Assembly (NCBI GenBank): GCA_903904735.1
Contig: CAIVDM010000220.1
Coordinates: 20,320 to 84,319, forward strand
DNA length: 64,000 nt
Direction of reading: 5' to 3'
Source of the DNA: an uncultured delta proteobacterium
GTDB taxonomy: Bacteria; Bdellovibrionota_C; UBA2361; OMII01
Part shown: positions 32,361 to 49,332 of the stretch, piece by piece
Layout of the letters: each line of letters starts with the position of its first letter
How positions within the stretch are numbered: position 1 is the first letter of the stretch
Translations under genes and position numbers: made by a program
The notes under the pieces: model-generated
What the model was told of the DNA's origin: nothing
Databases searched by the model: none
Seen by the model: the letters and a program-made list of their open reading frames with translations, nothing else

Positions 32361-34294
32361 ATGCGAGTCTTGCTTTTACTATCACCCCTGTTGTCGCGAT
32401 ATTATTCACAAGTCTGACTGGCTGCTGGGGCGACAAGATGCCCTCCCCAAGCGCGGTCACGAACTCATGCTCCCCAACTGCAGAAGAGTTCGCCACGAAT
32501 GCTCGACAAGGATACGACTACTTCAAACGACACAATGCCGCCGATTGGAGGGTGTCACTTGAGACGATTCGGGAAGTACGCGCGAGAGCGCAACATACGC
32601 CAAGCGACTCATCCCTTCCTCTTATCTGGGAAGAGGGAGATCGCTTTCCAAGCGTCAGGCGAAGCGATGGTAGTGTTTTTAGACTCACTCCAATTTTGAA
32701 TCGGCATCAGGTAAGTGCCATCCTTCGCGTCGCGACCAACAACAGCGCTAAGGTCATCGTCGTCATAGCCCAGACACCAGCGACTTCACGTCAAATCCTC
32801 CTCATCATCGACACGCGGACTGGTGCAACCTCAGAGATCAACGTCGACGCTTACGACGCTTTGTGGATGGATAATTCCAGTCTTCTCTTCTCCGCGCGAG
32901 TTAACTATGAACCGCGAGCCGTGTTCTCTCTGCGCCTGGGGGAAGCTCCTCGCGAAATTGCCTCTACTAAAGAGCCGGGCGAGGCACTCTTATTGCGTTC
33001 AAGCGGCAGAGAGGGATACGGGTTTATTGAGCACAGTCACCCTGAATGGTCCTTCTTTGAAGTCGCGAACTCCTCGAATCCTTCCCACACGAAGATAATT
33101 ACTTCTAAAGGTACGCCGGGCAGCGCTTGTTCAATTCTTGAGAACTCTATCTTCTGCTCTTCATTCAGCAAACATCCAAACGGTTCAATCTCTCGTACGG
33201 CCCTGGGAGGAGAGTCTCGCCCTCACACGGTATATGTGGAATCGTCAGGTGGAGCGATCTCTCATCTCTCTCCCTGCTCTGAGGGGCTCGCGATATTTAC
33301 ATCACATGGGTCTTACTCAACCCAGTCGGTGATTTCTAGTGAAGGCGCGCTCGTCAGAGCTCCGCTTCACGGAGGCGAGACTACTACGCTCGTTCCCGCT
33401 CCCAGTTATATAGGAGGTACTGGCTCTCGAGTCACCAGACGATCATTTTTAAGGCCTAACGAAACCATGAGCGTGGAGTGCATGCCGAACGTATCGCCGG
33501 CTCAACGCTCGCGCTTCTGCGAGAGCTGCGTAGAACGCTCGCTCTCTACCATCAGCGCGGATGGCGTTTCTATCCCAATCTCACTGGTGACTCCCAGTAA
33601 TCCACGTGGTCTTCTTATTAAAGTATATGGGTCTTACGGCGTCAGCTCTCGCGCCGAGTTTTCGCCGGAAGTTATATCCCTCACACACCAAGGCATCGCG
33701 GTCGCCCTGGCCCATGTGAGAGGCGGAGGCGAACTCGGCCCTTCATGGCATTCTCAGGCGAAAAGCGCGAACAAGGCGCGGTCGGTGGAAGATCTATCCG
33801 CGAGCATTTCAGAGCTTTCACGGATGTTAAATCTGCCACCACAGCGTGTAATCCTCTACGGGCGAAGCGCGGGAGCGTGGCTCGCGGCGAAAACAGCCAC
33901 GTTACACCCGGAGAAGATTAGCGCCCTTATTCTTGAAGCTCCTCTGCTAGACTTAGAGAAAGTGGTGCCGAACAAAACGCTTCCTCTGTATGAGAGAGAG
34001 CGTCACGAGTGGGGCGTCTCACCGAAAGTGTTGCGTGCTTTCTCGCCCACCCTCCCGTTACACAAAATGTCGATCGATCTACTTGCCCAAATACCTTTGC
34101 GAGACCAACTCGCCCCACCTTACGACACACTCCGCTGGCTGCGTGACTTTGAATGTCATCAATCCCCTCACTTCCGTACAATCGTCTCCTTATTGCCAGA
34201 GGCGGACCATAGCGGTCCAACATCCCGGCTAGCGGTTGACGAGTGGAGCGCCGCTCAAGAGGTATTCATCAAGAACGTGATCGAGCGAGAATAG
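32361..34294 (+). CDS. S9 prolyl-oligopeptidase/oligopeptidase-B-like protein, probably exported; true start uncertain
   Basis: VYGSYG, AHVRGGGELGPSWH, nucleophile GRSAG, candidate Asp (RDQL) and His (ADHSG); LTG-C lipobox-like segment; the ORF-track start at 32150 overlaps the tRNA and is rejected. Confidence 0.7.
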
Positions 34295-34379
34295 TAGAGT
34301 AGGCATGGCTCCTTCAGGTTAGGATTGATAGTCGGAGATCAAAGGAGAGGTTCAACATGAATCGCTTTAAACCTTCGAA

Positions 34380-34976
34380 TCACGATCCGTATCTTTCGGC
34401 CAGGAACGCCTTCAAACCACTGACTCCCAGATCCGTGAATCGCACGACCCCCTTGTCGTCAATGAAAACCGCGTAAGGCAATCGCTCTCCATAAAAAGCG
34501 AGAAAAGCCTCGTCTTGCACATCATTGCCTGAGAATACGTGCGTCATGCTCTCGAGGCCTTGGAGGCGTATCCGATTCTGGAGCTCTTCGTACGCTTCGT
34601 TCTTATCGACGCTGATGGCGTAGAACTCAACCTCCGGCCTATCCTTGTACACACGAGCTAAGGCCTCAAACTCTTGAATACCTGAGCGCGAATGCGGACA
34701 CCACGTCGCCCAAAAGAGAAGCGCCACATTTCTTCCAGCCCTACTGCTCAGCGCGATATGCTCTCCGCTAAGGAGCATCAAACGACTCTGGGGTGCCTGT
34801 CGCCCAATGAGCGATCGAGCTTGGTCAGAGAGAGACGCACAGCCCGGTAGAACAACGCAAAGAAGAAGCGCCGTGGCCAGCGCGTATGCCCTAAAAGTAG
34901 TGTCATAGCCGCGTGCTGTGACGCCTATAGCGTGAAATACTAAGAATAGAGTTCTCATCATCGCCCCTCTATACAC
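34380..34976 (-). CDS. TlpA/ResA-like thioredoxin-fold lipoprotein with CxxS site
   Basis: LLFWATWCPHS, FYAISVD, LPYAVFIDDKGVVR; LPG-C lipobox-like segment; start uncertain. Confidence 0.78.
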   Translation of the reverse strand: MYRGAMMRTLFLVFHAIGVTARGYDTTFRAYALATALLLCVVLPGCASLSDQARSLIGRQAPQSRLMLLSGEHIALSSRAGRNVALLFWATWCPHSRSGIQEFEALARVYKDRPEVEFYAISVDKNEAYEELQNRIRLQGLESMTHVFSGNDVQDEAFLAFYGERLPYAVFIDDKGVVRFTDLGVSGLKAFLAERYGS

Positions 34977-35051
34977 TAGGTGGGTTCACCACCTTAGAAC
35001 AAGAGCGTGGTGAACGTTGACATCACCTACTGTACAGAAGATTACCCTTTA

Positions 35052-37385
35052 TCAGGAACCCCTAATTCGGGGCATTTCACTCTCGTACCGAGCCTTCACC
35101 TCTGGATCCGACTCAGTCAGATACGCGTCGACGATCTGCTGCCAGCTTGACGACAGAGATACCCCTTTTACGTACGGTATAATGAGCAATCGGACACGTT
35201 TGTCCGGATGCTTGAGTAAATCCACGAGCAGCACGGGATTGATCGTATCGCCCAAGTTCTCAAGAATCGCTTTGACAAGTAGTGGGCTTCCGCGCTGTAG
35301 CATGAGCTTGGACAGTTGCGACGCGAACGGCGTTCCTCGAATCGACGAAAACGCGGTCTTCACTTCCTCCTGGCTCAGAGAATCAATGAGCCCGACCCCT
35401 CCGATGAATCTGCCGTAGTAGGCTCGGCCAACGTCAATGTTATTACTCACATATGAAAGCGCGTCATCAACCGAGACATTTCCCGTCGACTTAGTGCTCA
35501 ACGCGTTAAGGGAGCTCTCAATCACCTCTGAATTCGCGTTCATCAAAAGCGTGGCTAGTAAAACTTTTACCGACGCTGGGTCGTACCACTGACTATAGTT
35601 CTGCACGTCATCCATGTCAGGCTGCCGCCGCGCGCTCTTAAGGAGCGCTCCCATCGGGATGTTTTGCATATCGGAGGCGTGGGCGATGCTTTGAACAAAA
35701 AAACGATGATACCCCGGAGCTAATTGATTAATTCGATTCGATTTGACGAACTTCTGCAATTGCTCAGCGCGTTGTAAAATTAAGGTCTCTAGTAGCCACC
35801 ATGCGTCCTGGTCACTCATCGATGAGGCTCTCTGCATGATAGGCTCGAAAAAAAGCTCTCGGGCGCTCGGGATAGCGGCGATCAGCGCTAACGTACTAAC
35901 TGAGTCTATAGGGGCTCGCCCCACTCCGGTCTGCTTCCTCGCTCCTCTCATGAGTAGCTCTCGGAACAAGTTCGGATCAGATAGATCAAGTGTGAGAGCT
36001 CCAGCGAGCATATATGCGAGATCTGGGTCGACTGGCTCATAGGAAATTACCGCGTCTCGTCTTTTTTCTTTCGGCAGGTCCAATTCCATCACTTTCAGTA
36101 TGGCGGACATATCGGCCGGTTTCATGGATGACGGGGCTTTGACGAGATATCCTAGCACCTCGGCGGCAATGGAATATCCGCCGCTCTTTCCCTGTGAAAG
36201 TCGCTCTTGCCAGAGAGCGGAAAGTTCAGGTGTGGAGATGGTCTGTGTGGGTTCTGTGTTTGTCGATACGCGAGAACCCGCCTCAGGTTGCTCGGACGTA
36301 TCCTGCGAGGGGATGGCCGCCACGTCCTCTCCGTTAATTAAGTCTCGCCAGTCGCTTTTTAGAAGCCCCGCCCGCTCGGTCTCGGATATAGATGGAAAAA
36401 TCGGGACGAGCGACCACACGGCGAACAGCGCCAAACACAGCGACCCGCAAGCGCAGCTCATCACAAACAAGCGGGGGCGAGATAGTTGCCGGAGCCACGC
36501 CTGCCTCCTAATTTCGCCACGTGGGAGCGAAATGACCTGGGTATGTTCTTGTTTTTGGTCATGTAAGGTGTCGTGCCCGTCGTGGCTCTCGGCCGCGAGC
36601 CTTTTCTCGCAGGCGACATGAACGCTTATCGCGTCAAGCAGTTCGCTCGCGTTTTTATACCTTTCAGTGGGAGAGCGAGAGAGCACACCCGGCAAAACAG
36701 TCCTCAGCCACGTCGGCGCCTGAGGGTCTAGTGACCTCACGTAATCCGGCACATTTGAGGCCTGAATCGAATTGTCGGGGAAACCCGCGCCAAATAACCG
36801 AAGTCCTATTACCGCCAAAGCGTATACATCAGCCGCCTGGCTTGACTCAGTCGCGTCGAGAAGCTCAGGTGGGATAAGCACTCGGTATTCCGCCGATAGC
36901 TCTCTATGCGGCCTCCCGAAAGCGCCCCCCGCATAACCAACGAAATGCACATCCTCATCGGAATCGAGCATGAAGGAATCCCCGCACAGATTGCCACACA
37001 CGCGACCCGGAAGGTGGAGGGCCTCTATTTTAAGTATCGCCGCTAGGAATCTACGCGCTTTGACAAGCGGAGTTGGAGCGTCATAGTCCAGTCGCTTCGT
37101 TGCGAGGGATGACAGCGCGACGTAACCGATTCCATCCACGTCACATCCATAGCGTGATATCCGTTCGATTCCTCCCTCGCTTAAGGATAGTATGTGCTGA
37201 TGGAACGCTATCTTACCGTTCTCGGTGAGTGCCTCTCTGGTGAACCAAATCGCGCAGTGTAAATTGCCCGTCTTATCGTAGGCTCGGTATCCGTCCGCTA
37301 ACGAGTTGGCGCCAAACTTCCAATCGAGCGAGTAGTACTCACTGAGGTGCTCTAAGTATGTTGGCTCGCGCTTCCTGAAAAACAT
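35052..37385 (-). CDS. membrane-anchored Ser/Thr pseudokinase with large helical/HEAT-like C-terminal domain
   Basis: kinase C-lobe remnants IPPE, SQAADVYALAVI, PTERYKNASELL but HRD replaced by CGN and no DFG or Gly-loop; one TM near residues 305-330; C-terminal DLLKHPDKRVR HEAT-like motif. Confidence 0.65.
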   Translation of the reverse strand: MFFRKREPTYLEHLSEYYSLDWKFGANSLADGYRAYDKTGNLHCAIWFTREALTENGKIAFHQHILSLSEGGIERISRYGCDVDGIGYVALSSLATKRLDYDAPTPLVKARRFLAAILKIEALHLPGRVCGNLCGDSFMLDSDEDVHFVGYAGGAFGRPHRELSAEYRVLIPPELLDATESSQAADVYALAVIGLRLFGAGFPDNSIQASNVPDYVRSLDPQAPTWLRTVLPGVLSRSPTERYKNASELLDAISVHVACEKRLAAESHDGHDTLHDQKQEHTQVISLPRGEIRRQAWLRQLSRPRLFVMSCACGSLCLALFAVWSLVPIFPSISETERAGLLKSDWRDLINGEDVAAIPSQDTSEQPEAGSRVSTNTEPTQTISTPELSALWQERLSQGKSGGYSIAAEVLGYLVKAPSSMKPADMSAILKVMELDLPKEKRRDAVISYEPVDPDLAYMLAGALTLDLSDPNLFRELLMRGARKQTGVGRAPIDSVSTLALIAAIPSARELFFEPIMQRASSMSDQDAWWLLETLILQRAEQLQKFVKSNRINQLAPGYHRFFVQSIAHASDMQNIPMGALLKSARRQPDMDDVQNYSQWYDPASVKVLLATLLMNANSEVIESSLNALSTKSTGNVSVDDALSYVSNNIDVGRAYYGRFIGGVGLIDSLSQEEVKTAFSSIRGTPFASQLSKLMLQRGSPLLVKAILENLGDTINPVLLVDLLKHPDKRVRLLIIPYVKGVSLSSSWQQIVDAYLTESDPEVKARYESEMPRIRGS

Positions 37386-37402
37386 ACCCAGCTATCCTGC
37401 CG

Positions 37403-39490
37403 TCATCGCATCTTCCAAACTCCCACTTGCATCACTGGAAAAGCCGGATCAACTTCGTCAAGTGTTGTTACAAACAAGTTAAGTCCAGTTACTCGGACAA
37501 ATGAGATCACTTTTTCTTTCACGTCTTTGCTGCAGAGCAAGGCGATCGGCAATATGCCCCCGCTAAAGGCCGGCCGCAAAAGCGAATGTAATCCTTGAAA
37601 CAACCCATCATACTGCTCAGGCGGCATCGCCAGGGCAGTTGTCCAACGGTCAGTCTGTACATCCTCAAAATCGCGCTCTACCCTTGGTGAAAGTGTAATG
37701 ACCGGTAGGACAGGGATACTCCCAACAAATCTTCTGACTATTTGGCGTCGCCTGCTCGCGCGTATGAAATGCACCGCTTCGGCAACGGCCACCGGGATGT
37801 TGGAGTCGGTAGTGACGCCAGACGCGGCGCAATACTGCGCGAGCGCCTCAATAATCGAGCGAAAGTCCCGGATGCTGACACCCTGTCGCACTAACTCCTG
37901 AAGGATCTCCGTCAGCTTGGGAATTGAGACAAACTCCCTACCGAATCCATCTCCCATCAGTCCCGGATATTTCTTCTCGATCTGCCTCAGAAGTGAATGG
38001 ACATACGTCACGGAGATAAATTCCTCTGGGTGACGAATGCAGAACTGGCACATCCGGAGCGTGATGAAGTCAAAGAAGTCATAGTAACCGATACTGCCCG
38101 CCATTAACATTCTTGTGACGGCGGGCGAATCTTTCGTCCAAAAGACACGGTGCCCGGTGACGGGATGCTCCTCTTCGCGAATGACTTTCAATCCCAGCGC
38201 CTCAGCCTGTGAAGATGATATCTCGACCAGTATTGAGTTTGTTGGCACATCGCCAGCGAACAGCTCGACACCAAAATAACTCGCTTTGTAGGCATTTGAG
38301 CCTAGAAGGCTATCACTCTGGACTAGGAGCGGCGGTAAGGAAATCCCGATATCATCGAGCATTTTCTCACGAAAAGCCCTCCACTTGGCGGATAGCCCTT
38401 GTATCTCTTGCCGGTACAAACGATGTAAATCCTTTGAATCAAGCGACAGAACGATCCTCCCCTCGACCGAATCGGCTTCTTTGCTGCCAAGAAGACTCTC
38501 GCCCTGATCAGCGGAGAGGGTTCCGTCAAACGACGCTCGACCGTGACTGTGGCGAAGTGCCCACCATCCTATCGTCGTGACTCCTACGCTTGCCACTAGG
38601 AACGGAAGCGTGGGCAATCCAGGAACGAGCGCCATGCCGAATAGTATGAATGCCGTCACGAACAATGTCACAGGCTGATCAAATAGCTGAGCGCGGAGAT
38701 CCGCGCTCAGGCTAGACCGTTCAGACGATGACACTCTTGTGACGATGATTCCCGCGCAGATAGATGTAAGTAAACTCGGGATCTGGGTCACAAGCCCATC
38801 GCCCACGGTAAGGACTGTATAAGTCTGCACCGCGTCACTAAACCCCATACCTCCTAGTATGCCCATGTACATACCGCCGAAGATGTTCGCCGCGATTATA
38901 AAAAGACCCGCTATCGCGTCGCCCTGTACAAACTTCATCGCGCCATCCATCGAGCCATAAAGCTGCGATTCCCTGCGCAACTCATCACGCTTGAGACGAG
39001 CCTCGTTCGCTGATATGACCCCGGCGCGCGCGTCATTATCAATCATCATCTGTTTGCCGGGTAAGGCGTCCAAGGCGAATCGAGCCGCCACCTCTGAAAC
39101 TCGGCCCGCTCCGCTTGAGATCACGATAAAGTTGACGACCGTGACTATTGAGAAAATAATGAGTCCAACGACTACTTCTCCACGAATAAGAAACGTTCCA
39201 AACGCCTCAATCACTCGCCCCGCCTCACCTTGTGATAGGATGAGTCTGGCTGACGCCACGTTTAATCCTAGGCGAAATAGCGTGCTCAATAGCAGAATGG
39301 TTGGAAACGTGTACAGGGCGCCCGAATTAGCGACGTATAAACCAATTAAGAGAAGCAAGATGGCGAAGGCGATATTACACACCAACAAAATATCTAAGAC
39401 AGGAGTGGGAAGCGGAATTATCAGCATCGCCGCGATGGCGACGACAAAGAGCATCAATATCAGGTCTGAATACTTCACGCGCTGTGCCAT
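37403..39490 (-). CDS. sctV: type III secretion export-gate major subunit, FlhA/SctV (FHIPEP) family, SctV-like
   Basis: FPTILLLSTLFRLGLNVAS, RVSEVAARFALDALPGKQM, ESQLYGSMDGAMKFVQGDAIAG, LTVGDGLVTQIP, LVRQGVSIRD; short RLILSQGEAG loop typical of SctV rather than FlhA. Confidence 0.8.
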   Translation of the reverse strand: MAQRVKYSDLILMLFVVAIAAMLIIPLPTPVLDILLVCNIAFAILLLLIGLYVANSGALYTFPTILLLSTLFRLGLNVASARLILSQGEAGRVIEAFGTFLIRGEVVVGLIIFSIVTVVNFIVISSGAGRVSEVAARFALDALPGKQMMIDNDARAGVISANEARLKRDELRRESQLYGSMDGAMKFVQGDAIAGLFIIAANIFGGMYMGILGGMGFSDAVQTYTVLTVGDGLVTQIPSLLTSICAGIIVTRVSSSERSSLSADLRAQLFDQPVTLFVTAFILFGMALVPGLPTLPFLVASVGVTTIGWWALRHSHGRASFDGTLSADQGESLLGSKEADSVEGRIVLSLDSKDLHRLYRQEIQGLSAKWRAFREKMLDDIGISLPPLLVQSDSLLGSNAYKASYFGVELFAGDVPTNSILVEISSSQAEALGLKVIREEEHPVTGHRVFWTKDSPAVTRMLMAGSIGYYDFFDFITLRMCQFCIRHPEEFISVTYVHSLLRQIEKKYPGLMGDGFGREFVSIPKLTEILQELVRQGVSIRDFRSIIEALAQYCAASGVTTDSNIPVAVAEAVHFIRASRRRQIVRRFVGSIPVLPVITLSPRVERDFEDVQTDRWTTALAMPPEQYDGLFQGLHSLLRPAFSGGILPIALLCSKDVKEKVISFVRVTGLNLFVTTLDEVDPAFPVMQVGVWKMR

Positions 39491-39518
39491 ATTGGTCCGG
39501 TTGGGCCCCTCACCTATA

Positions 39519-40445
39519 TTAGGTAACCTTGAGCATTTGCGAGCCGATGCCTATGAATAGTAAGATCATGTAGGCCACAAAGACGAGCGCCACTGGGCCT
39601 GAGGCTTTAAGCTCAAGCTTCCGAATGCGCTCCTCTATCTTCGCTTCTCGTTGAGCGCCGACGGCGTCCGCGAGGTCCTGAAGCTGCTTCGATATCTCTC
39701 CTCCAAACTTCGCTACCTGAGACAGCGCTAGCAAGACATGCTTTAACTCGCTATGTCCAGACGCTCGACCAATCTCTTTGAGTGAATCCTCCAAGCTTAC
39801 ACCTGATTTCACATAGAACTGGGAATATTTAAGAAGTTCTGTTACCGCGTTGTGACTCTTTCGCTCATCCGCCATCTGCACAATGCGAGATAAACAAGGC
39901 CCTATGTCGAGAGAACTGCTAACTCCAATCGATATCTGCTCGATCACCAGTGGGAGATAATACGAAATGTCCTCATGCTGCTGAAGTATCCATTTATTGA
40001 TGATTCTGAGCGGTAGATACACACCGAGAATCACACCAAGAAAGCCTCCCAACATGATCATGTCAGAGGTTCCAATAAATGCTCCAAGTATGAGACCCAC
40101 GATACCACAAACTAGTGGGGCTAACATCTGCTTTTGGCGAAAGTCTCTGCGCTCTTCCTCGGACAATCGCCCGGCCATAAACAGCTTTTCATCGGTCGTG
40201 GGCTCCTTCTTTTTCCGCCCAGTCTTTTGAAAGGCACTGTCTATCTCATGCTCCTCCCCCTCATCCTCCTCCGCCTCGAGATCAAGGTCCTCCTCATTTG
40301 ACTCAGCGTACATGAGCTCGCGACCAGCACGACGAAGATTACCTCTTCCTAATCTGCGTGTTTGAGTCGCTAATGCGTACCATCCCGCCGCTACGGCGAA
40401 GAGTAGAGCAGCGACGACTATGGTGATTAAGAGTGTCCTGTCCAC
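39519..40445 (-). CDS. tadC: Tad inner-membrane platform protein TadC (T2SS-F fold)
   Basis: LPLVIEQISIGVSSSL...GGEISKQLQDLAD...EAKIEERIRKL..K...PVALVF; follows tadB. Confidence 0.82.
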   Translation of the reverse strand: MDRTLLITIVVAALLFAVAAGWYALATQTRRLGRGNLRRAGRELMYAESNEEDLDLEAEEDEGEEHEIDSAFQKTGRKKKEPTTDEKLFMAGRLSEEERRDFRQKQMLAPLVCGIVGLILGAFIGTSDMIMLGGFLGVILGVYLPLRIINKWILQQHEDISYYLPLVIEQISIGVSSSLDIGPCLSRIVQMADERKSHNAVTELLKYSQFYVKSGVSLEDSLKEIGRASGHSELKHVLLALSQVAKFGGEISKQLQDLADAVGAQREAKIEERIRKLELKASGPVALVFVAYMILLFIGIGSQMLKVT

Positions 40446-40449
40446 TCGC

Positions 40450-41442
40450 CTATACCTTAAAGTTTGTCATTTTATTCATCCACAGAACTCCAAGTATCAT
40501 CAAAGCGACTGATGCCTGGGCGTACCCGTTAAGACTTGGGTTCTGCCATGTTCCGAGAACGATATCCGGGGTGGAAGCGAACATATACGCCTGGAGTCCG
40601 GCGATCAGAAGGAGGATTACCCAAATCGAGCCTCGGTGCATACCCACCGCCCCAGAGGCCGCCATTTTGAAGTTTTGTCGCTTACGAACCTGCCTGGCGA
40701 GTCTATCGAGAGTGTCTGAAAGAGTTCCTCCGACTCTTCGGCTCAAAATCAAAGCCTGGACGAAAAGTTCTATTTCTGGGTGGTTAATGTCCTCCCCGAA
40801 CGAGCCTATAGAGCGATCCTCGGACACACCAACCCTAAGACGTTCGAGCATTAACCCCACTTCTTGCCGTACAAGCGAGGTTTCCTCTAGCCCTTCCGCG
40901 CCAGCCTGAAGCGCTTGAATAGTATTAAGACCTGTCTTCAACATACCTACCACAGAGAGTAGGAACTGTGGAAAATCGACGTCGAATTTGCGCGCCCGCG
41001 CCTCAATTCTGCGGTTAATCACGAAGTTCACAACTAAAGGTCCGACAAAGAGTGACATAACCTGCAGAATCTCTTTGCAGTACATATGCGCCACTGAGAA
41101 GGCGGCAAGACTGATTACCACTTGCGCCACGCTACAGAAATATACGGGATACTGACCGAGCTCCGCGTATCTAAGTCGCGTCGCGAGAGATAGTCCGCGT
41201 GACTGCTTCACCTCGATTTCCGGCTTCTGACTTCCGCGGCGCCCTTTCGCTCCGACAAGCGACTCTCCGTCACTGAGCGCTGAGTCGTCTAGATTGCGAT
41301 ACTCCTGGGATATCGATCGCAGTGATATACTAGAGGAAGAACCTCCGGCCGACGCTCCAATAGCGCCAGACCATAACAGGAACGCTCCCGCGACCAAAAG
41401 CAGCAGAAGCAAAATAAGAGTGATCTGGAAACCAGATATCAT
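40450..41442 (-). CDS. tadB: Tad inner-membrane platform protein TadB
   Basis: FPQFLLSVVGMLKTGLNTIQAL, RRVGGTLSDTLDRLARQVRKR; follows the ATPase. Confidence 0.85.
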   Translation of the reverse strand: MISGFQITLILLLLLLVAGAFLLWSGAIGASAGGSSSSISLRSISQEYRNLDDSALSDGESLVGAKGRRGSQKPEIEVKQSRGLSLATRLRYAELGQYPVYFCSVAQVVISLAAFSVAHMYCKEILQVMSLFVGPLVVNFVINRRIEARARKFDVDFPQFLLSVVGMLKTGLNTIQALQAGAEGLEETSLVRQEVGLMLERLRVGVSEDRSIGSFGEDINHPEIELFVQALILSRRVGGTLSDTLDRLARQVRKRQNFKMAASGAVGMHRGSIWVILLLIAGLQAYMFASTPDIVLGTWQNPSLNGYAQASVALMILGVLWMNKMTNFKV

Positions 41443-41447
41443 AACGC

Positions 41448-43019
41448 CTACTTCCTCGCTTTATCACGCTCATTACCACTCTCCACGAACGTTACCTCAC
41501 CGCCCGCTTCTCCCAAGTTAATGCCGTCATTCTTCAACTGCTCGGAGAAATTGCTGTTCCATGAGTCAACTCTCCAGACGGGGCGCACCCCTTGCTTCGC
41601 CAAGGTGAACATGGGTCTTACTTGAATCACTCCCTCGACGAAGTGTCCTACCTCTATGACTTCGGCGATTCGAGGCTTGCCTGTCGCCTTCTCTCGTATG
41701 AGCCAGACGACACAGTCGACAGCGAGGGCGATCTGTTGCCGTATAATGTCGATCGCGACAGACTTTTGAGCTCTTCCGAGGAGACTTTCAAGTCGGACGA
41801 GTGTCTCACGCGCGTTTCGGGCGTGGATTGTGGACATTCCCACATGGCCAGTTTGAGCGCTCTCTAGGAAGGCCTCAGCCGAAAATGGCGTTCTCATCTC
41901 ACCCAGCAAAACTCGTGTAGGAGTCATTCGTAACGTTGTCTTGATGTGCTCTTGAAGTGTTACTTCTCCGGCGCCCTCGGAGTTCGGAGGTCGAGAGACG
42001 AGAGAGCGAAAGTAGGGGTGGGCGAAGTTGAGCTCTGGGGTATCCTCGACGGCGACTATCGATTCGTCTGGACCAAATTGTGTGGCCAGGCATTTAATAA
42101 GCGTCGTTTTGCCAGTTCCCGTCTCTCCAGCGACCATCATGGTCGCCAGACCTGAACGTACGAGAGAGGCCAGATAATTCACGATGAGTGGTGGTGCTAC
42201 TTGATACTTTACGAGGTTATCGAGGGATACCTCAGACATTCGAGGGACACGAATACATAGAAGCGGGCCTCGCTGACCGCATACGCTCTCATGAACCGCG
42301 CACAATCGGATTCCATTTGGAAAGGAGGCGTCCACGGTATGCTGCTGCGTGCTTAGGGACTTGCCTAGTCGAAGCAAGAGACGATCTATGAACGTCATAT
42401 ACGCCTGAGGATTGGGCCACGACAGCCCCGTCGTCTCGCTTATCTTTCCCTTTTGCAGAACGACGGTCTTGTAATCATATACGTGAATATCCGTCACTTC
42501 CCGATTATCGATGAGTGGTTGTAGCACTCCCCAGCCGACCAAGTCTTTTTGAAGAGTGATGATGATATTAGCGCGTTCGATATCATCGATCGAATCTCCG
42601 CGTTTTTTTATCACGCGGTCCACAGCTTGAGCTATTACCGCCTCCGTCTTCGTGGCTGTGGCGAGCGCTTGCTGCATCGCCGAATCGCTTCCCAACTCTC
42701 TTCTAGCCTCTCGCATCACAGTCGAGGCGACTGGCGACATCTCCATCGTCTGCGTCGGATGTCGCACTTGCTGGGTTCCCGTTTGCGCCGCGCTCGCTGT
42801 TGTGGTTACGGTAGGGCGTTCAGGTTTCTTTATCGTAGCGTCTTGTTGATTGTGCGCGGCAGGCGGAGCGTCTGTTGATATGCGGGTGCGCTCAGCTCTC
42901 GTGGAGAACATTCCTTTTAACGAATTAGTATCACTGCGCTCCTTTCCACTCATATGCTTCCTGTCGTCGAGTGACGTCCGTTTCTTAGCAACAACAACTT
43001 GGGTGAACTGCGAACTCAA
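41448..43019 (-). CDS. cpaF: Tad/Flp pilus assembly ATPase CpaF/TadA
   Basis: GWGVLQPLI, GETGTGKTT (Walker A), VEDTPEL (Asp box), LRMTPTRVLLGEMR (Walker B), TGHVGMSTIHA (His box); TTG start uncertain. Confidence 0.9.
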   Translation of the reverse strand: MSSQFTQVVVAKKRTSLDDRKHMSGKERSDTNSLKGMFSTRAERTRISTDAPPAAHNQQDATIKKPERPTVTTTASAAQTGTQQVRHPTQTMEMSPVASTVMREARRELGSDSAMQQALATATKTEAVIAQAVDRVIKKRGDSIDDIERANIIITLQKDLVGWGVLQPLIDNREVTDIHVYDYKTVVLQKGKISETTGLSWPNPQAYMTFIDRLLLRLGKSLSTQQHTVDASFPNGIRLCAVHESVCGQRGPLLCIRVPRMSEVSLDNLVKYQVAPPLIVNYLASLVRSGLATMMVAGETGTGKTTLIKCLATQFGPDESIVAVEDTPELNFAHPYFRSLVSRPPNSEGAGEVTLQEHIKTTLRMTPTRVLLGEMRTPFSAEAFLESAQTGHVGMSTIHARNARETLVRLESLLGRAQKSVAIDIIRQQIALAVDCVVWLIREKATGKPRIAEVIEVGHFVEGVIQVRPMFTLAKQGVRPVWRVDSWNSNFSEQLKNDGINLGEAGGEVTFVESGNERDKARK

Positions 43020-43305: not shown

Positions 43306-44157
43306 TTATTCTGGGAGTAGAGCTGCGCCTACAACGCGATAGCGTCGACCGTCGATTAGTACCCAACCCTGGTCAGACGGTCCCTTGGCGGCTACATTGT
43401 CAGAGAGACCAATGATGGAGTCCAGCGGCACGGTTTCGGTCTCGATTATATCACCGGTATCTTCATCTCCACGTAGCAGAAGTCGTAGCGTTCCCTGGCC
43501 AGAGGCCAGTTTTAATCTTTTCTGGTCTTCAATTGAGACTTCTAACGTGACCGTCGACGCGTCTCCTTCTACCATTTGCGACTCGCCACCGAATTCCGAA
43601 GAAACGCTCGTTCCGCTTGATAGCACCCTCACGTTCTGGAGAATGATGGTGCCTGTCGCCTTTGGACCTGTATCGGCTACAAGCAATACATCGACACGAA
43701 CACCTGCCCGCGCCCAACCTTCATTCGTTGTCTCTCGGTCGAGCTTTACGGTTATAGCTCTGTATCCTTGACGAATCTTCGGGACAACGCTGTTTATAGG
43801 TGACTTCGAGGTAATGTGATCAGTGACCAATGGCTGCCCAGCCGGAATAAACGACTTAGCGTATACGCCTCGAAGCTGCTCAAAATCGGAGATGAGGTTG
43901 ACACCCGCCAGAGTGGTCTTTTCCCGCGACTCCTTACGGAAAAGGGTGGGTTTCAACTCCGCGCCCACATCGATGTTCTCTACGGGGACTAGAATATCAA
44001 CGACTCCTAATTCCGCCACCTGGGTTACGACAGGCTTTTGCTCTGGATTTTCTATAAATAACGCGGCCAACAAGAGGCCAGACGCTAACAGCAGGCCAAA
44101 ACCAACGATTATCCTGAACCGTGGGGCAGGGGCTGATTTTTTGTAACGAGTAGTCAC
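43306..44157 (-). CDS. cpaB: Flp pilus assembly protein CpaB/RcpC
   Basis: N-terminal TM, SAF-like domain, GYRAITVKLD, G..RAGVRVDVLL, ILQNVRVL, TVTLEVS...KLASGQGTLRLLLR. Confidence 0.88.
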   Translation of the reverse strand: MTTRYKKSAPAPRFRIIVGFGLLLASGLLLAALFIENPEQKPVVTQVAELGVVDILVPVENIDVGAELKPTLFRKESREKTTLAGVNLISDFEQLRGVYAKSFIPAGQPLVTDHITSKSPINSVVPKIRQGYRAITVKLDRETTNEGWARAGVRVDVLLVADTGPKATGTIILQNVRVLSSGTSVSSEFGGESQMVEGDASTVTLEVSIEDQKRLKLASGQGTLRLLLRGDEDTGDIIETETVPLDSIIGLSDNVAAKGPSDQGWVLIDGRRYRVVGAALLPE

Positions 44158-44181
44158 GGGTATGTCACTGAATTAAACGAC

Positions 44182-44237: not shown

Positions 44238-44435
44238 CTATCCGATCTGTCCCGCGACAGTGCTGAACTGTTTAGAAATGTTACTTCCAAGTACTCTCAT
44301 AGCGGCAATTCCGGCCACCGCGACTAATGCGACGAGTAGCGCGTATTCCACCAGCGACGCTCCCTTCTGGGACTTCTTCTCGAGATGGGTTTCTTTTTTA
44401 TCTAACGACACTTCAATTGACATAGACTCCTCCAA
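44238..44435 (-). CDS. flp: Flp family type IVb/IVc pilin
   Basis: KSQKG|ASLVEYALLVALVAVAGIAAM, class III signal with Flp EY motif; GGAGGAG RBS suggests a start at the downstream MSIEV. Confidence 0.92.
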   Translation of the reverse strand: MEESMSIEVSLDKKETHLEKKSQKGASLVEYALLVALVAVAGIAAMRVLGSNISKQFSTVAGQIG

Positions 44436-44575: not shown

Positions 44576-45841
44576 TTAACGCATTTCACTCTCAGAACGT
44601 CGACGAAACAGACGTTGTAGCCAACCACGGGCGGAGCTCGCGTCCTCGTCGTAGGAGATTCCCACACCCTTTACCCCGAGTTGCTCCACAAGACCCAGCT
44701 TACGCGCAATATCCGCGATTACATTCCTAAGCTCTTTACTTCCACTACTATATAAGGTGCTGCCCGTGCCAGGCCACTCAGCTGCCTTCGGGTCAAAAGG
44801 AATCACTGGAAGACTCCATGCCGCTTCACTCAGCTGGTGAACATTGTCGAGCTCTGTGGATATCTGTTTGAAGTTCACCGGCTCATCACTCGAGGGATTA
44901 ATGATAAATCGCAGACGGTCGCTTCCGCCCAGGAGAGGCTTCACTGAGGTCAACAACAAATCAACCGCCGTTAGGCCAAGCTCCGAGTCATCGGTGACCA
45001 TTATTACTAGGTCCGCGACTCGCAGAAGACCTCCCACCGCGGGCCCCATACGACCGGCGGTATCAACGATCACCACGTCAAATAGCACTCTAGACAATTC
45101 AATTATTCGTTGCGAAATCTCCATTCCATCGGCATGGCACACAAGGTCCATTGATTCAGCGAATCCCGCCGGCGGCGTTAGCACCGAGACGTCCCCCACA
45201 ATAGGTATGAGCGCGTCACGAAAAGTCTCTCGATTTATGTCGCGACTTCCATTAACCCATCCACTGATAATTTTCGCCTCTGGTCCACTCGCCGCGAGAG
45301 CGCGACTAAGATCCTTTGTTTCAACGTCTAAGTCCCACAACATGGTCCTTCGATTCGCGGCGCTGCACGCTTCTCCCAGGGCGGCGGTCACTGAAGTTCC
45401 TCCCACTCCACCTTTGGCGTGTAGAACCACAACTATCCGTCCTTCATATGTCCGGCCATCCTTTCGAAAGTCCGCGTGAATCGCGACCAACTCTTGTAGA
45501 AGATCGAGAGAACCCGCGCTCTCAGGAAATACTTTTCTCACCCCTACGGAGTGAGCCGATCGGAAGGCTCCGCCGCCATACTCCTTATCAGTGACGAACA
45601 TGACGATCTGGATCCAAGCCGCTTCTGTGCGGATCTGACGAGCCAGCGATATCGCCTGGTCCGAAATACCTGACCCAAAAATAACGACATCGGCCTCTGA
45701 AAGACGGTCAACGAACTCACGATCGTTAACGAGGCGTACCTTCAGGTCCAACATCTCCTTGTCGCCCTTTGTGAAGCCCTCGATCCGTTTCGCGCACAGC
45801 GCCTGGGTTTCAGTTGAGTTATCGACGATGAGAACTCTCAT
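44576..45841 (-). CDS. cpaE: CpaE/TadZ-like localisation ATPase (receiver-like N-domain plus MinD/ParA-like domain)
   Basis: MRVLIVDN receiver-like start; degenerate Walker A HAKGGVGGTS; LWDLD; VVIVDT; start overlaps the kinase stop. Confidence 0.8.
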   Translation of the reverse strand: MRVLIVDNSTETQALCAKRIEGFTKGDKEMLDLKVRLVNDREFVDRLSEADVVIFGSGISDQAISLARQIRTEAAWIQIVMFVTDKEYGGGAFRSAHSVGVRKVFPESAGSLDLLQELVAIHADFRKDGRTYEGRIVVVLHAKGGVGGTSVTAALGEACSAANRRTMLWDLDVETKDLSRALAASGPEAKIISGWVNGSRDINRETFRDALIPIVGDVSVLTPPAGFAESMDLVCHADGMEISQRIIELSRVLFDVVIVDTAGRMGPAVGGLLRVADLVIMVTDDSELGLTAVDLLLTSVKPLLGGSDRLRFIINPSSDEPVNFKQISTELDNVHQLSEAAWSLPVIPFDPKAAEWPGTGSTLYSSGSKELRNVIADIARKLGLVEQLGVKGVGISYDEDASSARGWLQRLFRRRSESEMR

Positions 45842-47319
45842 AATTGACCACCGAATAGACTTAATTTATCTAAAAACGACGGGCTGAATATCTTTAAAAA
45901 GACAAAACCAAACGCGACTCCGAAGCAAACCGCGATAAGAAGCGTTAGCATATCGAGCACCCGCAGACGACGATTACTAGCTTCTAACAAATCTACGGGA
46001 AACTCGGTAGTTGTGTGCCCTCTCGTATGCCGGTCTCTAAATCCACTTCGCTCGTTATATCCCTCAGGCCCTCGAATTGGTGTTTGTGCCTGTGCCGCCT
46101 TTGACGACTCGGCGGCATCGGATCCAGAAAGCGCGTATTCAACATACGAAGCGCTCAAAACTTCTGTATCACTGTTGATTGTCTGCCTCGGCTTGCCGGC
46201 AACATTTATCGCCGGGGATGATTCCGAACCCCTCGACGCGGCTGAATGGGAATCGGAGGTCGACCAATCAGTGGTGTCCGAACGACCTCGAGCTTTACTA
46301 ACATCGATGGATCCGTCCGAGCTGAGCAATTGAGTCTCATAGCCCATCTTTGCCGTTGTAGAATTGGTCGCAGGATCCATGAGTGAAGGACCGACGTATC
46401 GCTGCCCGGGTTGGAGACCTCCCGTTGGCATATATAAACCACTTCCAGTCTGAGACTGGATTCCGGCGTTTGCGGCCGCGCGCTGAAGGTCGGCGAATAT
46501 CTCCATCGCCGATTGATATCGCGCCTCTGGATCTCGCTCTAGCGCTTTTAAGATGATCGAGTCTATCTCTGGCGAGCACTCTTTTCGGAGCTTACTAGGA
46601 GGCTCTGGGTCTACTTGCAAACGCTTGCTTATAGACTCATAAGGACTATCTCCCTTGAATGGCGGCTCCCCAGTTAACATCTCAAATGCCAGAATGCCCA
46701 AGGCATAGATGTCAGACCGCCAGTCCACTTGAGACCTCAGCATATACTCCGGGGCAACGTATTCAATCGTTCCTACCACGCCCCCATGCTCCGTTAACTT
46801 AGGCCCGTTACGATTACGAGCTATGCCGAAATCAGCGATCTTAATGTTGCCCTCGTTAGTGAGAAGGATATTTTCAGGCTTTAAGTCTCGATGAACAATT
46901 CCCGCGTCGTGAATGGCCTGCACCCCCGCGGTCATCTGACTTAGCAGTTTGATAAACTCAGCGATGCTCATGAGCTGGGATCGGCTCATTCTATCCGCTA
47001 AGTCACCCCCTCCCACAAACTCCATCGTGTAAGCGACGAGATCCCCATCCGTAATATACTCGTATGCGCGCACTACATTGGGGTGAGAGACTCCATACGA
47101 GGCGAGCACCTCATTTTTGAACCTTGCCGCCGCTACCTTGTCAGCCGCTACCTCATGAAAGAGCACTTTCGCCGCGACCATCTGCCCCTGGAGCTCTCGG
47201 TGCCTGCACGCGTACACCATTCCCATAGACCCGGCGCCGAGGCACTTAACGACCTCATACTTTCCGCCGATCACGGTACCTGGTTGTAAGCTTATGAGAT
47301 GCTGGTCCGACATAATCAC
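45838..47319 (-). CDS. Hanks-type Ser/Thr protein kinase, C-terminally membrane-anchored
   Basis: LGAGSMGMVY, AAKVL, HRDLKPEN, DFG, GT.EYVAPE, SDIYALG all intact; C-terminal TM. Confidence 0.93.
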   Translation of the reverse strand: MIMSDQHLISLQPGTVIGGKYEVVKCLGAGSMGMVYACRHRELQGQMVAAKVLFHEVAADKVAAARFKNEVLASYGVSHPNVVRAYEYITDGDLVAYTMEFVGGGDLADRMSRSQLMSIAEFIKLLSQMTAGVQAIHDAGIVHRDLKPENILLTNEGNIKIADFGIARNRNGPKLTEHGGVVGTIEYVAPEYMLRSQVDWRSDIYALGILAFEMLTGEPPFKGDSPYESISKRLQVDPEPPSKLRKECSPEIDSIILKALERDPEARYQSAMEIFADLQRAAANAGIQSQTGSGLYMPTGGLQPGQRYVGPSLMDPATNSTTAKMGYETQLLSSDGSIDVSKARGRSDTTDWSTSDSHSAASRGSESSPAINVAGKPRQTINSDTEVLSASYVEYALSGSDAAESSKAAQAQTPIRGPEGYNERSGFRDRHTRGHTTTEFPVDLLEASNRRLRVLDMLTLLIAVCFGVAFGFVFLKIFSPSFLDKLSLFGGQL

Positions 47320-47327: not shown

Positions 47328-48347
47328 TCACTCCTCGCCCATTTCTATAGAGACCAAACAAACGTGGAACTTTTTCTCTCCAAAGAAAACAACATCCCCG
47401 TGCCTCGCGACTCCTTTCTCTCCTGACAAAGACTCATCCTCCCCGGAATCTATGTGAATTATGCGCGTACCGAATTCAGAGAGCTGATCTAAGATGTAAA
47501 TAGGTTCCCCACTGGAGATCCTCATAATGGCGTGCATCGGCGACACTGAACTATCCTCTATCACGAGACAAGGCGCCGCGCCCACACTTTCAGAGGTAAC
47601 TATCATTCTGCCCTCCCGGAGTTCCACGAACATCCCCCTCGGGTCCGCGTCAAACGACACCAAAAACCCAACGAGCGCGCCCCCGTTCATGCCCGACGGC
47701 GGCAAACGATGGGGACGTTCCTTGCGATGACGTGCGCTTAAAACAGATGCCCCCGCCTCGGACTTCTCTTTCATGTGGAGCGCAGATCCATCGGCGTCTG
47801 AGGCCGATATCTCGCTGGATTGTTCGGTGATATCGAGACTCACCGTTCCTGAGTCGATTACTCCTGGAAGGCCCGAGGATTCATCTGTTTCCACAGGAGT
47901 CGACTCCTCTGATGATGCATCAAAGTGAGCACTATCGACCGACGGGTCGATACCATCATTCACGACCGAATGACTCGAAATAGCATCCGCCATCTCCCCC
48001 ATAGATTGTGCGTCGTCAACGAAGTTCAACGGGTCGACTCGATTTTCGAGCGGCTCCGCGTCGACTTCTGACCCACGTGGCTCCTCGGATCCCATCAGCT
48101 CGTCCTCAGCGAAAATATCAAAGAGCGCGTGGTCAAGCGCGCTGTGATCGGAACTCCCCTGCTCAGGTGTCTCCCCCACCACGCCAAGTAGGTCAGCTAC
48201 CTGCTCATGCGTCGGAGAGCCCTCCGACGCGGACCGAAGAGCCCCAAGCTGGTCGGCTCCCATAACGATAGTTTTATTTCGCGCTCGATGAGCGCTCAAG
48301 ACGATTCGAGGATTTGATTTACCGCTATTTTCCATACGTATCTCCAA
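47328..48347 (-). CDS. FHA-domain protein (degenerate) with long acidic disordered N-region
   Basis: C-terminal LVGFLVSFD...ELREGR...VSPMHA...DQLSEFGT...HGDVVFFG fits the FHA fold. Confidence 0.7.
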   Translation of the reverse strand: MEIRMENSGKSNPRIVLSAHRARNKTIVMGADQLGALRSASEGSPTHEQVADLLGVVGETPEQGSSDHSALDHALFDIFAEDELMGSEEPRGSEVDAEPLENRVDPLNFVDDAQSMGEMADAISSHSVVNDGIDPSVDSAHFDASSEESTPVETDESSGLPGVIDSGTVSLDITEQSSEISASDADGSALHMKEKSEAGASVLSARHRKERPHRLPPSGMNGGALVGFLVSFDADPRGMFVELREGRMIVTSESVGAAPCLVIEDSSVSPMHAIMRISSGEPIYILDQLSEFGTRIIHIDSGEDESLSGEKGVARHGDVVFFGEKKFHVCLVSIEMGEE

Positions 48348-49332
48348 GTATCGCGAAAAACAGAAAGCCCATTACCGTAAGCAGCATGCCCACGATGCCG
48401 ACAACTGCCACCAATCCCAAATGGGAGGAAAGCGGCGCCCGCCTCCTCTTTTTTCGAGATGCGTTGGGTTTAAGTACTTTGGGAGTAGCCGCGTCGTCAG
48501 TCTCCTTGGCGGGAGGAGCCTGCTCATCGCAAAGCTCTCCTGCGAGGGGGATAACAACAGCCGTTATATTATCGTATCCACCACGCTCACGAGCCAACTC
48601 AATCAACTTAGTGCACGCTTCGAGAGGAGAGTACGCCCCTACTATCGCCGCCATGTCAGGCTCGGATACAAGGCTATAGAGACCATCCGAGCACAGCAGG
48701 AGCGCCCCCTGCTGATTCTCCTGAACTGATGAGGCCACCCAAAATCGATAGATATCGATCCCAAAACCCACCGCCGAACCGAGACACCGAGTTAGAATAT
48801 GAGACTGAGGATGCATCAAAGCGTCCTCTGGTCGAACATGTCCCAGGTCCACTAACTGTTGTACAAACGTGTGATCGGACGTCAACTGTCGAGCGGCGCC
48901 ACCAGCGATATAATAGGCTCTTGAATCCCCCACCGAAGCGATGACAACCTGGTTGCCACTACAAAGCGCCGCGACAACTGTAGTTCCCATAGACGAGAAC
49001 TTTGGGTTTTGTCGGCGTAACGCTATTACATCATGGGCGCTCTGAAGCGCCTCGCGCAGCATTTCCGTGGGGTCACTTCCAGAAGCTTTCTCGAAGTGAG
49101 AACGAACCGTATCAACCGAGAGTTGCGCAGCGGCCTCACCACCAGGCTCGCCACCCATTCCATCAAACACGAAGTAGCCCATTCCAAGGGCGGCCTTAAG
49201 CACGAGAAACCGATCCTCGTTTTTCGGTCGCTCACAACCAGTGTCCGTGAGCGCGGCGGGCACTCCGGCAATGTCGAAGCTCCCCGTTTTACGAGCTGGT
49301 TTATCCTTGTTCTGCTCCTGGTCCAGAATCAT
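48325..49332 (-). CDS. PP2C/PPM-family Ser/Thr phosphatase with C-terminal TM
   Basis: TDTG..R..NEDR, VFDGMGG, MGTT, VGDSRAY, LT.DH, LCSDGL, GGYDNIT. Confidence 0.93.
   Translation of the reverse strand: MILDQEQNKDKPARKTGSFDIAGVPAALTDTGCERPKNEDRFLVLKAALGMGYFVFDGMGGEPGGEAAAQLSVDTVRSHFEKASGSDPTEMLREALQSAHDVIALRRQNPKFSSMGTTVVAALCSGNQVVIASVGDSRAYYIAGGAARQLTSDHTFVQQLVDLGHVRPEDALMHPQSHILTRCLGSAVGFGIDIYRFWVASSVQENQQGALLLCSDGLYSLVSEPDMAAIVGAYSPLEACTKLIELARERGGYDNITAVVIPLAGELCDEQAPPAKETDDAATPKVLKPNASRKKRRRAPLSSHLGLVAVVGIVGMLLTVMGFLFFAILGDTYGK

Follow-up and report, generated by a model that had tools for sequence, protein, structure and literature searches.

What does a type III export gate do at a locus that carries no other export gene? 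The question is raised by a stretch of 64,000 nucleotides from an uncultured delta proteobacterium (GenBank assembly GCA_903904735.1, contig CAIVDM010000220.1, positions 20,320 to 84,319; referred to below as the window), in which the minus strand encodes at 37403..39490 a protein of the FHIPEP family, the family of flagellar FlhA and injectisome SctV. A first-pass annotation, made from the sequence alone, took this protein for SctV rather than FlhA, described it as standing alone and considered it a divergent, possibly repurposed gate or proton channel. In our estimate the FHIPEP is, with a probability of about 0.7, the gate of a non-flagellar, needle-less apparatus that is T3SS-like (T3SS, type III secretion system) and is joined genetically to a Tad-like (type IVc) pilus and to a Ser/Thr-phosphorylation/FHA module.

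The open reading frame (ORF) 37403-39490 (-) is real and encodes a full-length member of the family: the 695-aa protein matches Pfam FHIPEP (PF00771) in one stretch, from profile position 2 to 654 of 657, with 574 bits (cut-off 29.1). The description as standing alone does not hold. Between tadC and the start of the gene there are 28 nt, and a different contig of this genome carries matching sct genes; within a Tad-like operon the gene occupies the conserved last-but-two position and is no orphan. The earlier statement that no sctR/S/T/U, sctN, sctJ, flhB or flhF lies nearby holds for the window, where no sct, fli or flh export gene was found among the 43 ORFs of at least 150 aa that were scanned with Pfam. 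In the order of transcription the genes of the block are:

48325..49332 (-), PP2C-type Ser/Thr phosphatase, first gene of the block (Pfam PP2C_2/PP2C; NCBIfam Stp1_PP2C, 207 bits)
47328..48347 (-), 339-aa protein with a C-terminal FHA-like domain (Pfam FHA, E 0.0068, 17.2 bits, below cut-off)
45838..47319 (-), Ser/Thr protein kinase with a C-terminal membrane anchor (Pfam Pkinase, 193 bits; hydrophobic C-terminal stretch in the translation)
44576..45841 (-), CpaE/TadZ-like ATPase of the ParA/MinD type (Pfam AAA_31 and CbiA; NCBIfam CpaE_hom_Actino and MinD, below cut-off)
44238..44435 (-), Flp pilin, 65 aa (Pfam Flp_Fap, 43.1 bits, cut-off 32.2)
43306..44157 (-), CpaB/RcpC pilus assembly protein (Pfam RcpC, 72 bits; TIGR03177 pilus_cpaB, 116.5, cut-off 71)
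41448..43019 (-), TadA/CpaF-type secretion ATPase with a long low-complexity N-terminus (Pfam T2SSE, 110 bits; TIGR03819, 213, below cut-off)
40450..41442 (-), TadB-like platform protein (Pfam T2SSF, 44 bits), 5 nt from tadA
39519..40445 (-), TadC-like platform protein (Pfam T2SSF, 46 bits), 4 nt from tadB
37403..39490 (-), FHIPEP export-gate gene, 695 aa, ATG start, product in a distinct Tad-linked clade
35052..37385 (-), 777-aa protein with a kinase fold, one membrane helix and C-terminal HEAT repeats (from Pfam matches of an ortholog and from the Atlas)
34380..34976 (-), thioredoxin-fold (ResA/TlpA-like) protein (Pfam AhpC-TSA, Redoxin)

The Tad/Flp core set is thus present above the Pfam cut-offs (Flp_Fap, RcpC together with TIGR03177, T2SSE and T2SSF twice), TadA and CpaE falling below the NCBIfam equivalog cut-offs. 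Only 17 nt separate the FHIPEP gene from that of the 777-aa protein, and all genes lie on the same strand.

The linkage is not a peculiarity of this contig. The order PP2C, FHA, Ser/Thr kinase, CpaE, Flp, CpaB, TadA, TadB, TadC, FHIPEP, pseudokinase-HEAT recurs in nearly all related loci examined, and nearly all of the 124 species genomes searched carry the Tad-FHIPEP block. For example, tadC is found directly 5' of the FHIPEP gene in 5/5 loci from named records of metagenome-assembled genomes (MAGs; 62-83% identity) and in 20/20 divergent loci (FHIPEP identity 37-52%), of which 19 are from divergent genomes of the same order and one is from a genome of another order (G024). Seven further loci from other orders were fetched around genome matches to P0160, a protein of the sister subclade: five show the tadC-FHIPEP linkage by ORF, a sixth (L103) by a FHIPEP match that is partial, following tadC where the contig ends, and the seventh (L102) is too short to show it. 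Across the loci the junction between the two genes is a short gap or an overlap. On the other side, the 777-aa gene follows the FHIPEP gene in 4/5 of the close, 19/20 of the divergent and 6/6 of the other-order loci with a complete FHIPEP ORF. At the close exception the contig ends approximately 600 nt past the FHIPEP gene; at the divergent one (G070) it ends 1.1 kb past it, and the best match to the 777-aa protein is on another contig. A phylum-wide profile search gave the same picture, with the 777-aa gene 3' of the FHIPEP gene in 27 of the first 30 rows, the other 3 not being assessable. A gene of the sctV type is therefore fixed inside a tad operon across a class-level group. It should be mentioned that single in-frame stops interrupt otherwise full-length FHIPEP or 777-aa matches in some relatives (G034:C86, G065:C101, G069:C148; G044, G042, G049, G028), which could be assembly errors or recent pseudogenes.

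The genes flanking the tad core are likewise conserved. The PP2C phosphatase keeps its first position in the relatives' loci, and the orthologs of the 339-aa protein gave an FHA match in 5/5 cases scanned, 2 of them above cut-off. The ortholog of the 777-aa protein in G011, a genome of another order, matches Pfam Pkinase (33.3 bits) and HEAT_2, and the Atlas groups the 777-aa protein with kinase+HEAT clusters. Compared with the neighbouring kinase it has CGNLCGDS in place of HRDLKPEN and VGY in place of DFG; because catalytic loop and DFG are both replaced, the protein is predicted to be, probably, a pseudokinase. Whether the thioredoxin-fold protein is part of the system is uncertain. Its gene is found 3' of the 777-aa gene in 4/4 assessable close and 13/20 divergent loci and was not detected there in 7/7 other-order loci (L105, L097-L102). 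In six of these seven the gene directly after the 777-aa gene is a double-FHA gene (G011) or an ORF of 463-561 aa (five loci); L102 ends approximately 1 kb past the 777-aa gene with no further ORF of at least 200 aa.

Where, then, are the partners of the gate? The first-pass annotation had proposed searching the genome for a second, flagellar flhA, for sctRSTU and for sctN, and all were found, sctT as a probable, sctU as a truncated and sctN as an sctN-like gene. Three FHIPEP genes, on contig C177, on contig C158 and in the window, are present in the assembly, which comprises 3.4 Mb in 255 contigs and is 92.8% complete with 6% contamination. That on C177 encodes the flagellar FlhA (838 bits) within a complete flagellar gene block, motA-motB-fliL-fliM-fliN-fliO-fliP-fliR-flhB-flhA-flhG-like-fliA-like. 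The result that would have overturned the first-pass annotation, a sole FHIPEP gene grouping inside FlhA in a genome with otherwise complete flagellar genes, was thus not obtained. Flagellar FliI is encoded on C78 in a run of five ORFs sized like flgB, flgC, fliE, fliF and fliG, which were named by size and order alone. A further stator pair, MotA/MotB, lies in the window at 15987-18124 (+), apart from the C177 block; since that block has its own genes for MotA and MotB-plug, the genome has at least two stator sets.

A second FliP gene is found on contig C16, within a co-directional, FHIPEP-less cluster of sct-like genes, in the order:

double-FHA protein, SctD-like protein (FHA/YscD cytoplasmic domain), SctJ, 110-aa ORF, SctQ, SctR, SctS
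178-aa membrane ORF (SctT position), 198-aa ORF resembling the SctU N-domain (weak match), LcrH/SycD-like TPR protein

The 178-aa ORF is called SctT by position only, and all genes of the cluster score far below the NCBIfam cut-offs. No FHIPEP, secretin or needle gene was recognised in the cluster with Pfam, nor was SctI, SctN or SctL recognised there; the two secretin matches of the genome are on other contigs (C35 and C15). An SctN-like gene lies together with an SctL-like gene on C48. In the organism itself the system is thus split into two parts, the window block and the C16 cluster. Only the membrane domain is present in the SctU/FlhB protein of the Tad-linked system, both on C16 (L023:6736-7332) and in G011 (L104:13225-14010; PF01312 positions 3-236 of 335), and a separate 88-aa ORF of the own genome at C191:1571-1783 covers only the C-terminal domain of FlhB (positions 264-335).

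The third FHIPEP gene, on C158 (12.7 kb; L007:3178-10186), encodes 620 aa that match Pfam in two stretches and have a divergent C-terminal domain. Its neighbours are a sigma-70-family gene, an SctJ-like and an SctQ-like gene, small unknown ORFs and a gene for a TPR protein. Orthologs of this FHIPEP are found in G011, G036, G043 and G057; a FliP partner for the set, of the approximately 185-bit type seen in relatives, was not found in the own assembly.

That the window block and the C16 cluster belong together is seen in related genomes. G011, which is assembled in 3 contigs, holds both halves in a single run on the minus strand, from PP2C through the TPR chaperone:

PP2C, FHA, kinase, CpaE, Flp, Flp, CpaB, TadA, TadB, TadC, FHIPEP, kinase-HEAT
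double-FHA, SctD, SctJ, two small ORFs, SctQ, SctR, SctS, 294-aa ORF
SctU N-domain only, two small ORFs, sigma factors

A 166-aa ORF between SctJ and SctQ in this run (L104:17218-17718) has a faint FliJ match (Pfam E 0.032) and may encode an SctO/FliJ-like stalk protein. In all, the halves are contiguous, with 3.8-5.1 kb from the 777-aa gene to SctQ on the same strand, in 14 related genomes, of which ten are from other orders (G005, G008, G009, G010, G011, G018, G023, G024, G029, G030) and four from the own order, all of family f11 (G049, G052, G053, G054). Such contiguity is used here rather than presence or absence for the other orders, where a search with P0160 at E 1e-120 missed true members (e.g., G011). 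The supercluster is probably the older arrangement, from which the sct genes moved elsewhere in the own genome.

Co-occurrence points in the same direction. In most of the 124 genomes FHIPEP and FliP are each matched three times. In G058, a single-contig genome of the same order, the FHIPEPs are FlhA and the Tad-linked protein only and the FliPs are the flagellar and the C16-type one only; because no other non-flagellar FHIPEP or FliP is left in this genome, the Tad-linked FHIPEP pairs with the C16-type sct set. C16-type SctQ is found in 86/91 genomes of the order, including the own, and four of the five in which it is missed are 55-82% complete. Four genomes of families f4 and f5 (G040-G043) have two FHIPEP and two FliP matches each, none of which scores as flagellar-type. 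G043 lacks a flagellar-type FHIPEP and FliP and retains both non-flagellar sets, and the FliP scores suggest the same pattern for G040-G042. It seems, therefore, that these four have lost the flagellum and kept both non-flagellar T3SS-like sets.

Several observations weigh against the assignment of the FHIPEP to a Tad-joined T3SS-like apparatus. The halves lie apart not only in the own genome but in at least eight large-contig assemblies of the same order (G036, G043, G047, G057, G058, G082, G109, G114), and contiguity is therefore not required. Neither SctN nor SctL is found in the G011 supercluster; in the own genome the only non-flagellar SctL/SctN pair, that on C48, possibly belongs to the third (C158-type) system, and in G058 F1 ATPase subunits were found but no match of the FliI/SctN family that passes the TIGR01026 cut-off, so that both of its T3SS-type gates may do without an ATPase of their own. 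In G042, a genome 97% complete that has the Tad-FHIPEP operon, the query did not recover C16-type SctQ; the miss is likely due to divergence, the SctQ match in its relative G041 being found at only E 3.5e-18. A secretin and a prepilin peptidase are absent from the window block, the C16 cluster and the G011 supercluster, and no component for passing the outer membrane was identified. The traces of expression are three short contigs (154-344 nt, on tadC and the FHIPEP gene) from two freshwater RNA libraries, which contained 5-6% of the sequence words and may contain DNA. One of these contigs, 100% alike, spans 37562-37715 within the FHIPEP gene and is weak evidence for its expression; none of the three bridges a gene junction in the tad-FHIPEP block. 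A promoter and terminator scan of 34000-50200 gave chance-level counts, with no hit in the gaps between tadC, the FHIPEP gene and the 777-aa gene. Finally, function is deduced from gene content throughout, in a group with no cultivated member.

The alternative that survives best assumes two independent machines under common regulation. The FHIPEP would then serve in a separate needle-less T3SS, the Tad system would be an ordinary adhesive pilus, and the shared operon and kinase/FHA module would provide common timing. This would fit the halves lying apart in the assemblies just listed, and there is no evidence here of contact between Tad and Sct proteins. In the predatory bacterium Myxococcus xanthus, moreover, the Tad-like Kil system and the needle-less T3SS* are encoded in separate clusters (PMC10433427). 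Timing alone hardly explains, however, why the FHIPEP gene stays right after tadC even where the other sct genes have moved. And in M. xanthus T3SS* requires Kil for its localisation and is itself required by three of four pilus tips (PMC12075869). Two independent machines are on this evidence unlikely.

Very unlikely is the reading of the first-pass annotation, in which an orphan FHIPEP without SctRSTU core has been repurposed as a proton channel or as a docking ring working with TadB/TadC/TadA. The universal adjacency to tadC and the lack of sct genes in the window would be as expected from it; so would a supercluster without T3SS ATPase in which TadA is always present, and the lack of a FliI/SctN match above cut-off in G058. 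But the same genome holds a matching FHIPEP-less SctD/J/Q/R/S/U' cluster (C16), this type of cluster is contiguous with the FHIPEP block in 14 genomes, it provides the only spare FliP set of G058, and its SctQ is found in 86/91 genomes of the order, the own included. A gate or proton channel working without a T3SS core is hard to reconcile with the C16 cluster and its contiguity in those genomes.

To which branch of the family does the gate belong? Three trees were calculated: one with FastTree from 154 rows, after ten representatives of less than 600 aa had been dropped; one with IQ-TREE (LG+G4, quick search) from 89 hand-picked rows; and one with LG+C20 PMSF (quick search) from 48 hand-picked rows. 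A Ralstonia locus (L034), which is unannotated and whose longest frame looked spurious, was kept out. In all three the Tad-linked FHIPEPs form one clade (54/154, 28/89 and 14/48 rows) with a support of 100, composed of a subclade of the own order and a sister subclade from other orders. The FlhA clade (18, 15 and 10 rows; support 99, 98 and 99), in which the C177 protein groups, excludes the window FHIPEP, and the clade with all 6 named SctVs (46, 38 and 9 rows; support 99, 96 and 98) excludes the Tad-linked clade. With FlhA as outgroup the latter is placed in a basal polytomy of the non-flagellar FHIPEPs. Forcing it together with FlhA costs 2.9 log-likelihood units and is not rejected by the approximately unbiased (AU) test (p 0.445). 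The named members of the clade are all MAGs, labelled Bdellovibrionota, Bdellovibrionales, Oligoflexia, 'Deltaproteobacteria', 'Proteobacteria', 'Pseudomonadota' or 'bacterium J17'. By these trees the FHIPEP family has, in addition to FlhA and the injectisome SctVs, a third lineage with good support, the Tad-linked clade, and this has a bearing on the exaptation of flagellar export gates.

The family scores agree with this. The protein reaches 565.4 bits with the SctV equivalog model TIGR01399 (cut-off 692.25) and 518.9 bits with the FlhA equivalog model TIGR01398 (cut-off 772.1), both NCBIfam, and is thus indeed divergent. Six further members of the clade score 498-554 bits with TIGR01399, all below cut-off, and P0284 of the sister subclade does slightly better on the FlhA than on the SctV model (514 vs 507). 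Among solved structures the best sequence match is SctV 7alw (365 bits), followed by FlhA 36hw (319), SsaV 7awa (311) and FlhA 7amy (290 bits); a query of the ESM Atlas gave generic InvA/FHIPEP clusters only.

The motifs were compared in an alignment of 6 SctV and 6 FlhA rows (the own flagellar FlhA plus 11 named references whose sequences come from annotated records of plasmids and E. coli), 2 own paralogs and 8 clade members. The short loop RLILSQGEAGRVIEAFG between transmembrane helices 3 and 4, pointed out in the first-pass annotation, is real and is found in short form also in 6/6 SctV rows. The 6-residue insert regarded there as usual in FlhA does not discriminate: it is present in 3/6 FlhA rows (E. 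coli, Azospirillum and own FlhA) and missing from the other three (Listeria, Curtobacterium, Undibacterium), and a similar insert is found in three Tad-linked rows of the sister subclade (P0160, P0162, P0284), which makes it a poor marker for FlhA. The assignment of ESQLYGSMDGAMKFV to the SctV pattern is borne out, as ESQ..G..DGAMKF is found in 6/6 SctV rows and DGA[S/G/A]KFV in the FlhA rows. The deviating positions listed earlier are also present. Of these, FVQGD is a signature of the Tad-linked clade, with Q in 9/9 Tad-linked rows and K or R in 12/13 others; ISSG is peculiar to the window protein, its nearest relative P0059 having ISKG; and IDND is within the clade common to the window protein and P0059 and is found also in the Klebsiella SctV row. 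The charged residues of the coupling type are retained, as had been supposed: all seven checked (R94, R147, R154, D158, K203, D208 and D249 in E. coli FlhA numbering), which we take from the flagellar literature to be functionally critical positions of FlhA, are kept. Their intactness argues for a working gate coupled to the proton-motive force. 'SctV rather than FlhA' is therefore half of the answer. The lean towards SctV in motifs, model scores and best solved relative and the place outside the FlhA clade stand, and the protein lies also outside the clade of the named SctVs, while a place beside FlhA is not rejected. By scores and trees it is neither a canonical FlhA nor a canonical SctV.

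That the gene is a second flagellar flhA, serving an alternative flagellar system, is barely credible: despite the AU test, the FlhA-like insert in the sister subclade and the slight preference of P0284 for the FlhA model, none of the three trees places the protein within the FlhA clade (support 98-99), the genome has a separate flagellar flhA, no rod, hook, filament or flhB/flhF genes are found in the block or the G011 supercluster, and the four f4/f5 genomes apparently without flagellar-type FlhA/FliP still keep the Tad-linked FHIPEP.

If the FHIPEP is the gate of a T3SS-like apparatus joined to the Tad pilus, it would form a ring around an SctRST(U) core, inside rings of SctJ/SctD, and would be powered by the proton-motive force, for which its coupling residues are intact. 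Because no needle, secretin or translocon is encoded alongside, substrates would pass the inner membrane only, and the co-encoded Tad pilus would be their route or vehicle past the periplasm. Kinase, PP2C phosphatase, FHA proteins and the sensor-like pseudokinase suggest that assembly is controlled by phosphorylation and would be governed by these proteins. The C-terminal domain of SctU has its role in substrate switching, and an SctU without this domain would fit a system that has no needle to measure. What the analysis itself establishes is gene content, synteny, clade structure and residue conservation; physical assembly, substrates and a predatory or contact-dependent role are what we infer from this arrangement.

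A bolder version of the same idea is tentative, although possible. In it, Tad motor and T3SS gate would be one composite envelope machine, in some lineages without a T3SS ATPase: FHIPEP/SctRST would bring cargo or tip complexes into the periplasm, from where the Tad pilus would extrude them, like the piston of a type II secretion system fed by a T3SS gate, and the FHIPEP lineage would perhaps not be a branch of the injectisome SctVs but have come off the flagellar gate separately, at an early stage or independently. Fusion of Tad and sct genes in one neighbourhood is a classical predictor of physical or functional coupling, and as candidates for testing can be named the FHIPEP with TadB/TadC, the pseudokinase-HEAT sensor and the kinase/PP2C/FHA module. 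No report of a merged Tad-T3SS locus or of a FHIPEP gene in a tad operon was found in the literature, a search that did not extend to the supplements of the Myxococcus papers.

Other genes of the window should be mentioned briefly. It encodes two full-length ClpX paralogs 16 kb apart, at 11168-12427 (-) and 28202-29470 (-), the latter in the usual tig-clpP-clpX-lon block, and at 19536-23726 (-) a 1396-aa protein in which a glucose/sorbosone dehydrogenase-like domain is combined with several PKD domains.

How does the system compare with known ones? With flagellar FlhA the protein shares family and critical residues, and members of the sister subclade share the loop insert, an adjacent placement not being rejected; unlike FlhA, it scores below the TIGR01398 cut-off, lies outside the FlhA clade and has Tad rather than flagellar neighbours. 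With the injectisome SctVs (YscV/LcrD, InvA, MxiA, HrcV, RhcV) it has in common the FHIPEP architecture, the short loop, ESQ..DGAMKF and the charged residues. SctV-type partners are also available: sctR/S/T/U, sctJ, sctD and sctQ lie on C16 and are contiguous with the block in G011 and 13 other genomes. It differs from them in its TIGR01399 score below cut-off, in its place outside the clade of the six named SctVs, in FVQGD and in having no needle, secretin or gatekeeper genes; indeed, Pfam recognised no needle, secretin or translocon gene in the window block, the C16 cluster or the G011 supercluster.

Canonical Tad/Cpa loci are known from the cpa genes of Caulobacter and the tad genes of Aggregatibacter. 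As there, CpaE, Flp, CpaB, CpaF/TadA, TadB and TadC are found in the usual order, but the locus has no CpaC/RcpA secretin, CpaA/TadV peptidase, TadD, TadE/F or TadG; FHIPEP and pseudokinase are appended and a kinase/phosphatase/FHA module is placed in front. Such a module recalls PpkA/PppA/Fha1, the threonine-phosphorylation pathway of the Pseudomonas type VI secretion system (T6SS). In both cases the genes of a secretion machine are accompanied by those for a Ser/Thr kinase, a PP2C phosphatase and FHA proteins, which points to assembly triggered by contact. The machine here is a different one, and no phosphorylation target was identified.

The closest known parallel is probably the predation pair Kil/T3SS* of M. 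xanthus, the likeness to which (Kil, MXAN_3102-3108 and MXAN_4648-4661; T3SS*, MXAN_2434-2464) rests on published descriptions rather than on sequence comparison. T3SS* is composed of SctD, J, I, Q, RSTUV, N, L and LcrH-like chaperones and has no secretin, needle or translocon (PMC10433427), and the kil genes are found in two clusters apart from it (PMC10433427) that are rich in FHA proteins (PMC8460266). The Sct set described here is of the same kind: SctD-like protein, SctJ, SctQ, SctR, SctS, SctU N-domain, TPR chaperone and FHIPEP are present, that is, inner-membrane and sorting-platform genes with an LcrH-like chaperone and without secretin, needle or translocon, and by gene linkage the set is likewise paired with a Tad-like system and many FHA-domain proteins. 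There are differences, too. In M. xanthus the genes are in three separate clusters, whereas here one locus can hold both systems, the tad operon including the sctV-type gene. SctU lacks its C-terminal domain and no SctN/L or SctI was recognised in the supercluster. The locus has kinase, PP2C and pseudokinase-HEAT sensor built in, it has no secretin or prepilin peptidase corresponding to KilC and KilA, and its TadA, unlike KilF, has no Pfam FHA domain. The C158-type third set resembles in this comparison the second T3SS of M. xanthus, which plays no part in killing (PMC10469934).

Kil and T3SS* both gather at the site of contact with the prey, recruitment of T3SS* needing Kil (PMC12075869; PMC12428579). 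A joint complex has been hypothesised and is unproven, the mode of cooperation being left open in the 2025 papers (PMC12075869, PMC12428579). The mechanism outlined above mirrors this proposed model, a role in contact-dependent killing being suggested by analogy. The lineage offers independent comparative evidence on how Kil and T3SS* might cooperate, and by the same analogy it suggests a Kil/T3SS*-like contact weapon in uncultured Bdellovibrio-like freshwater bacteria.

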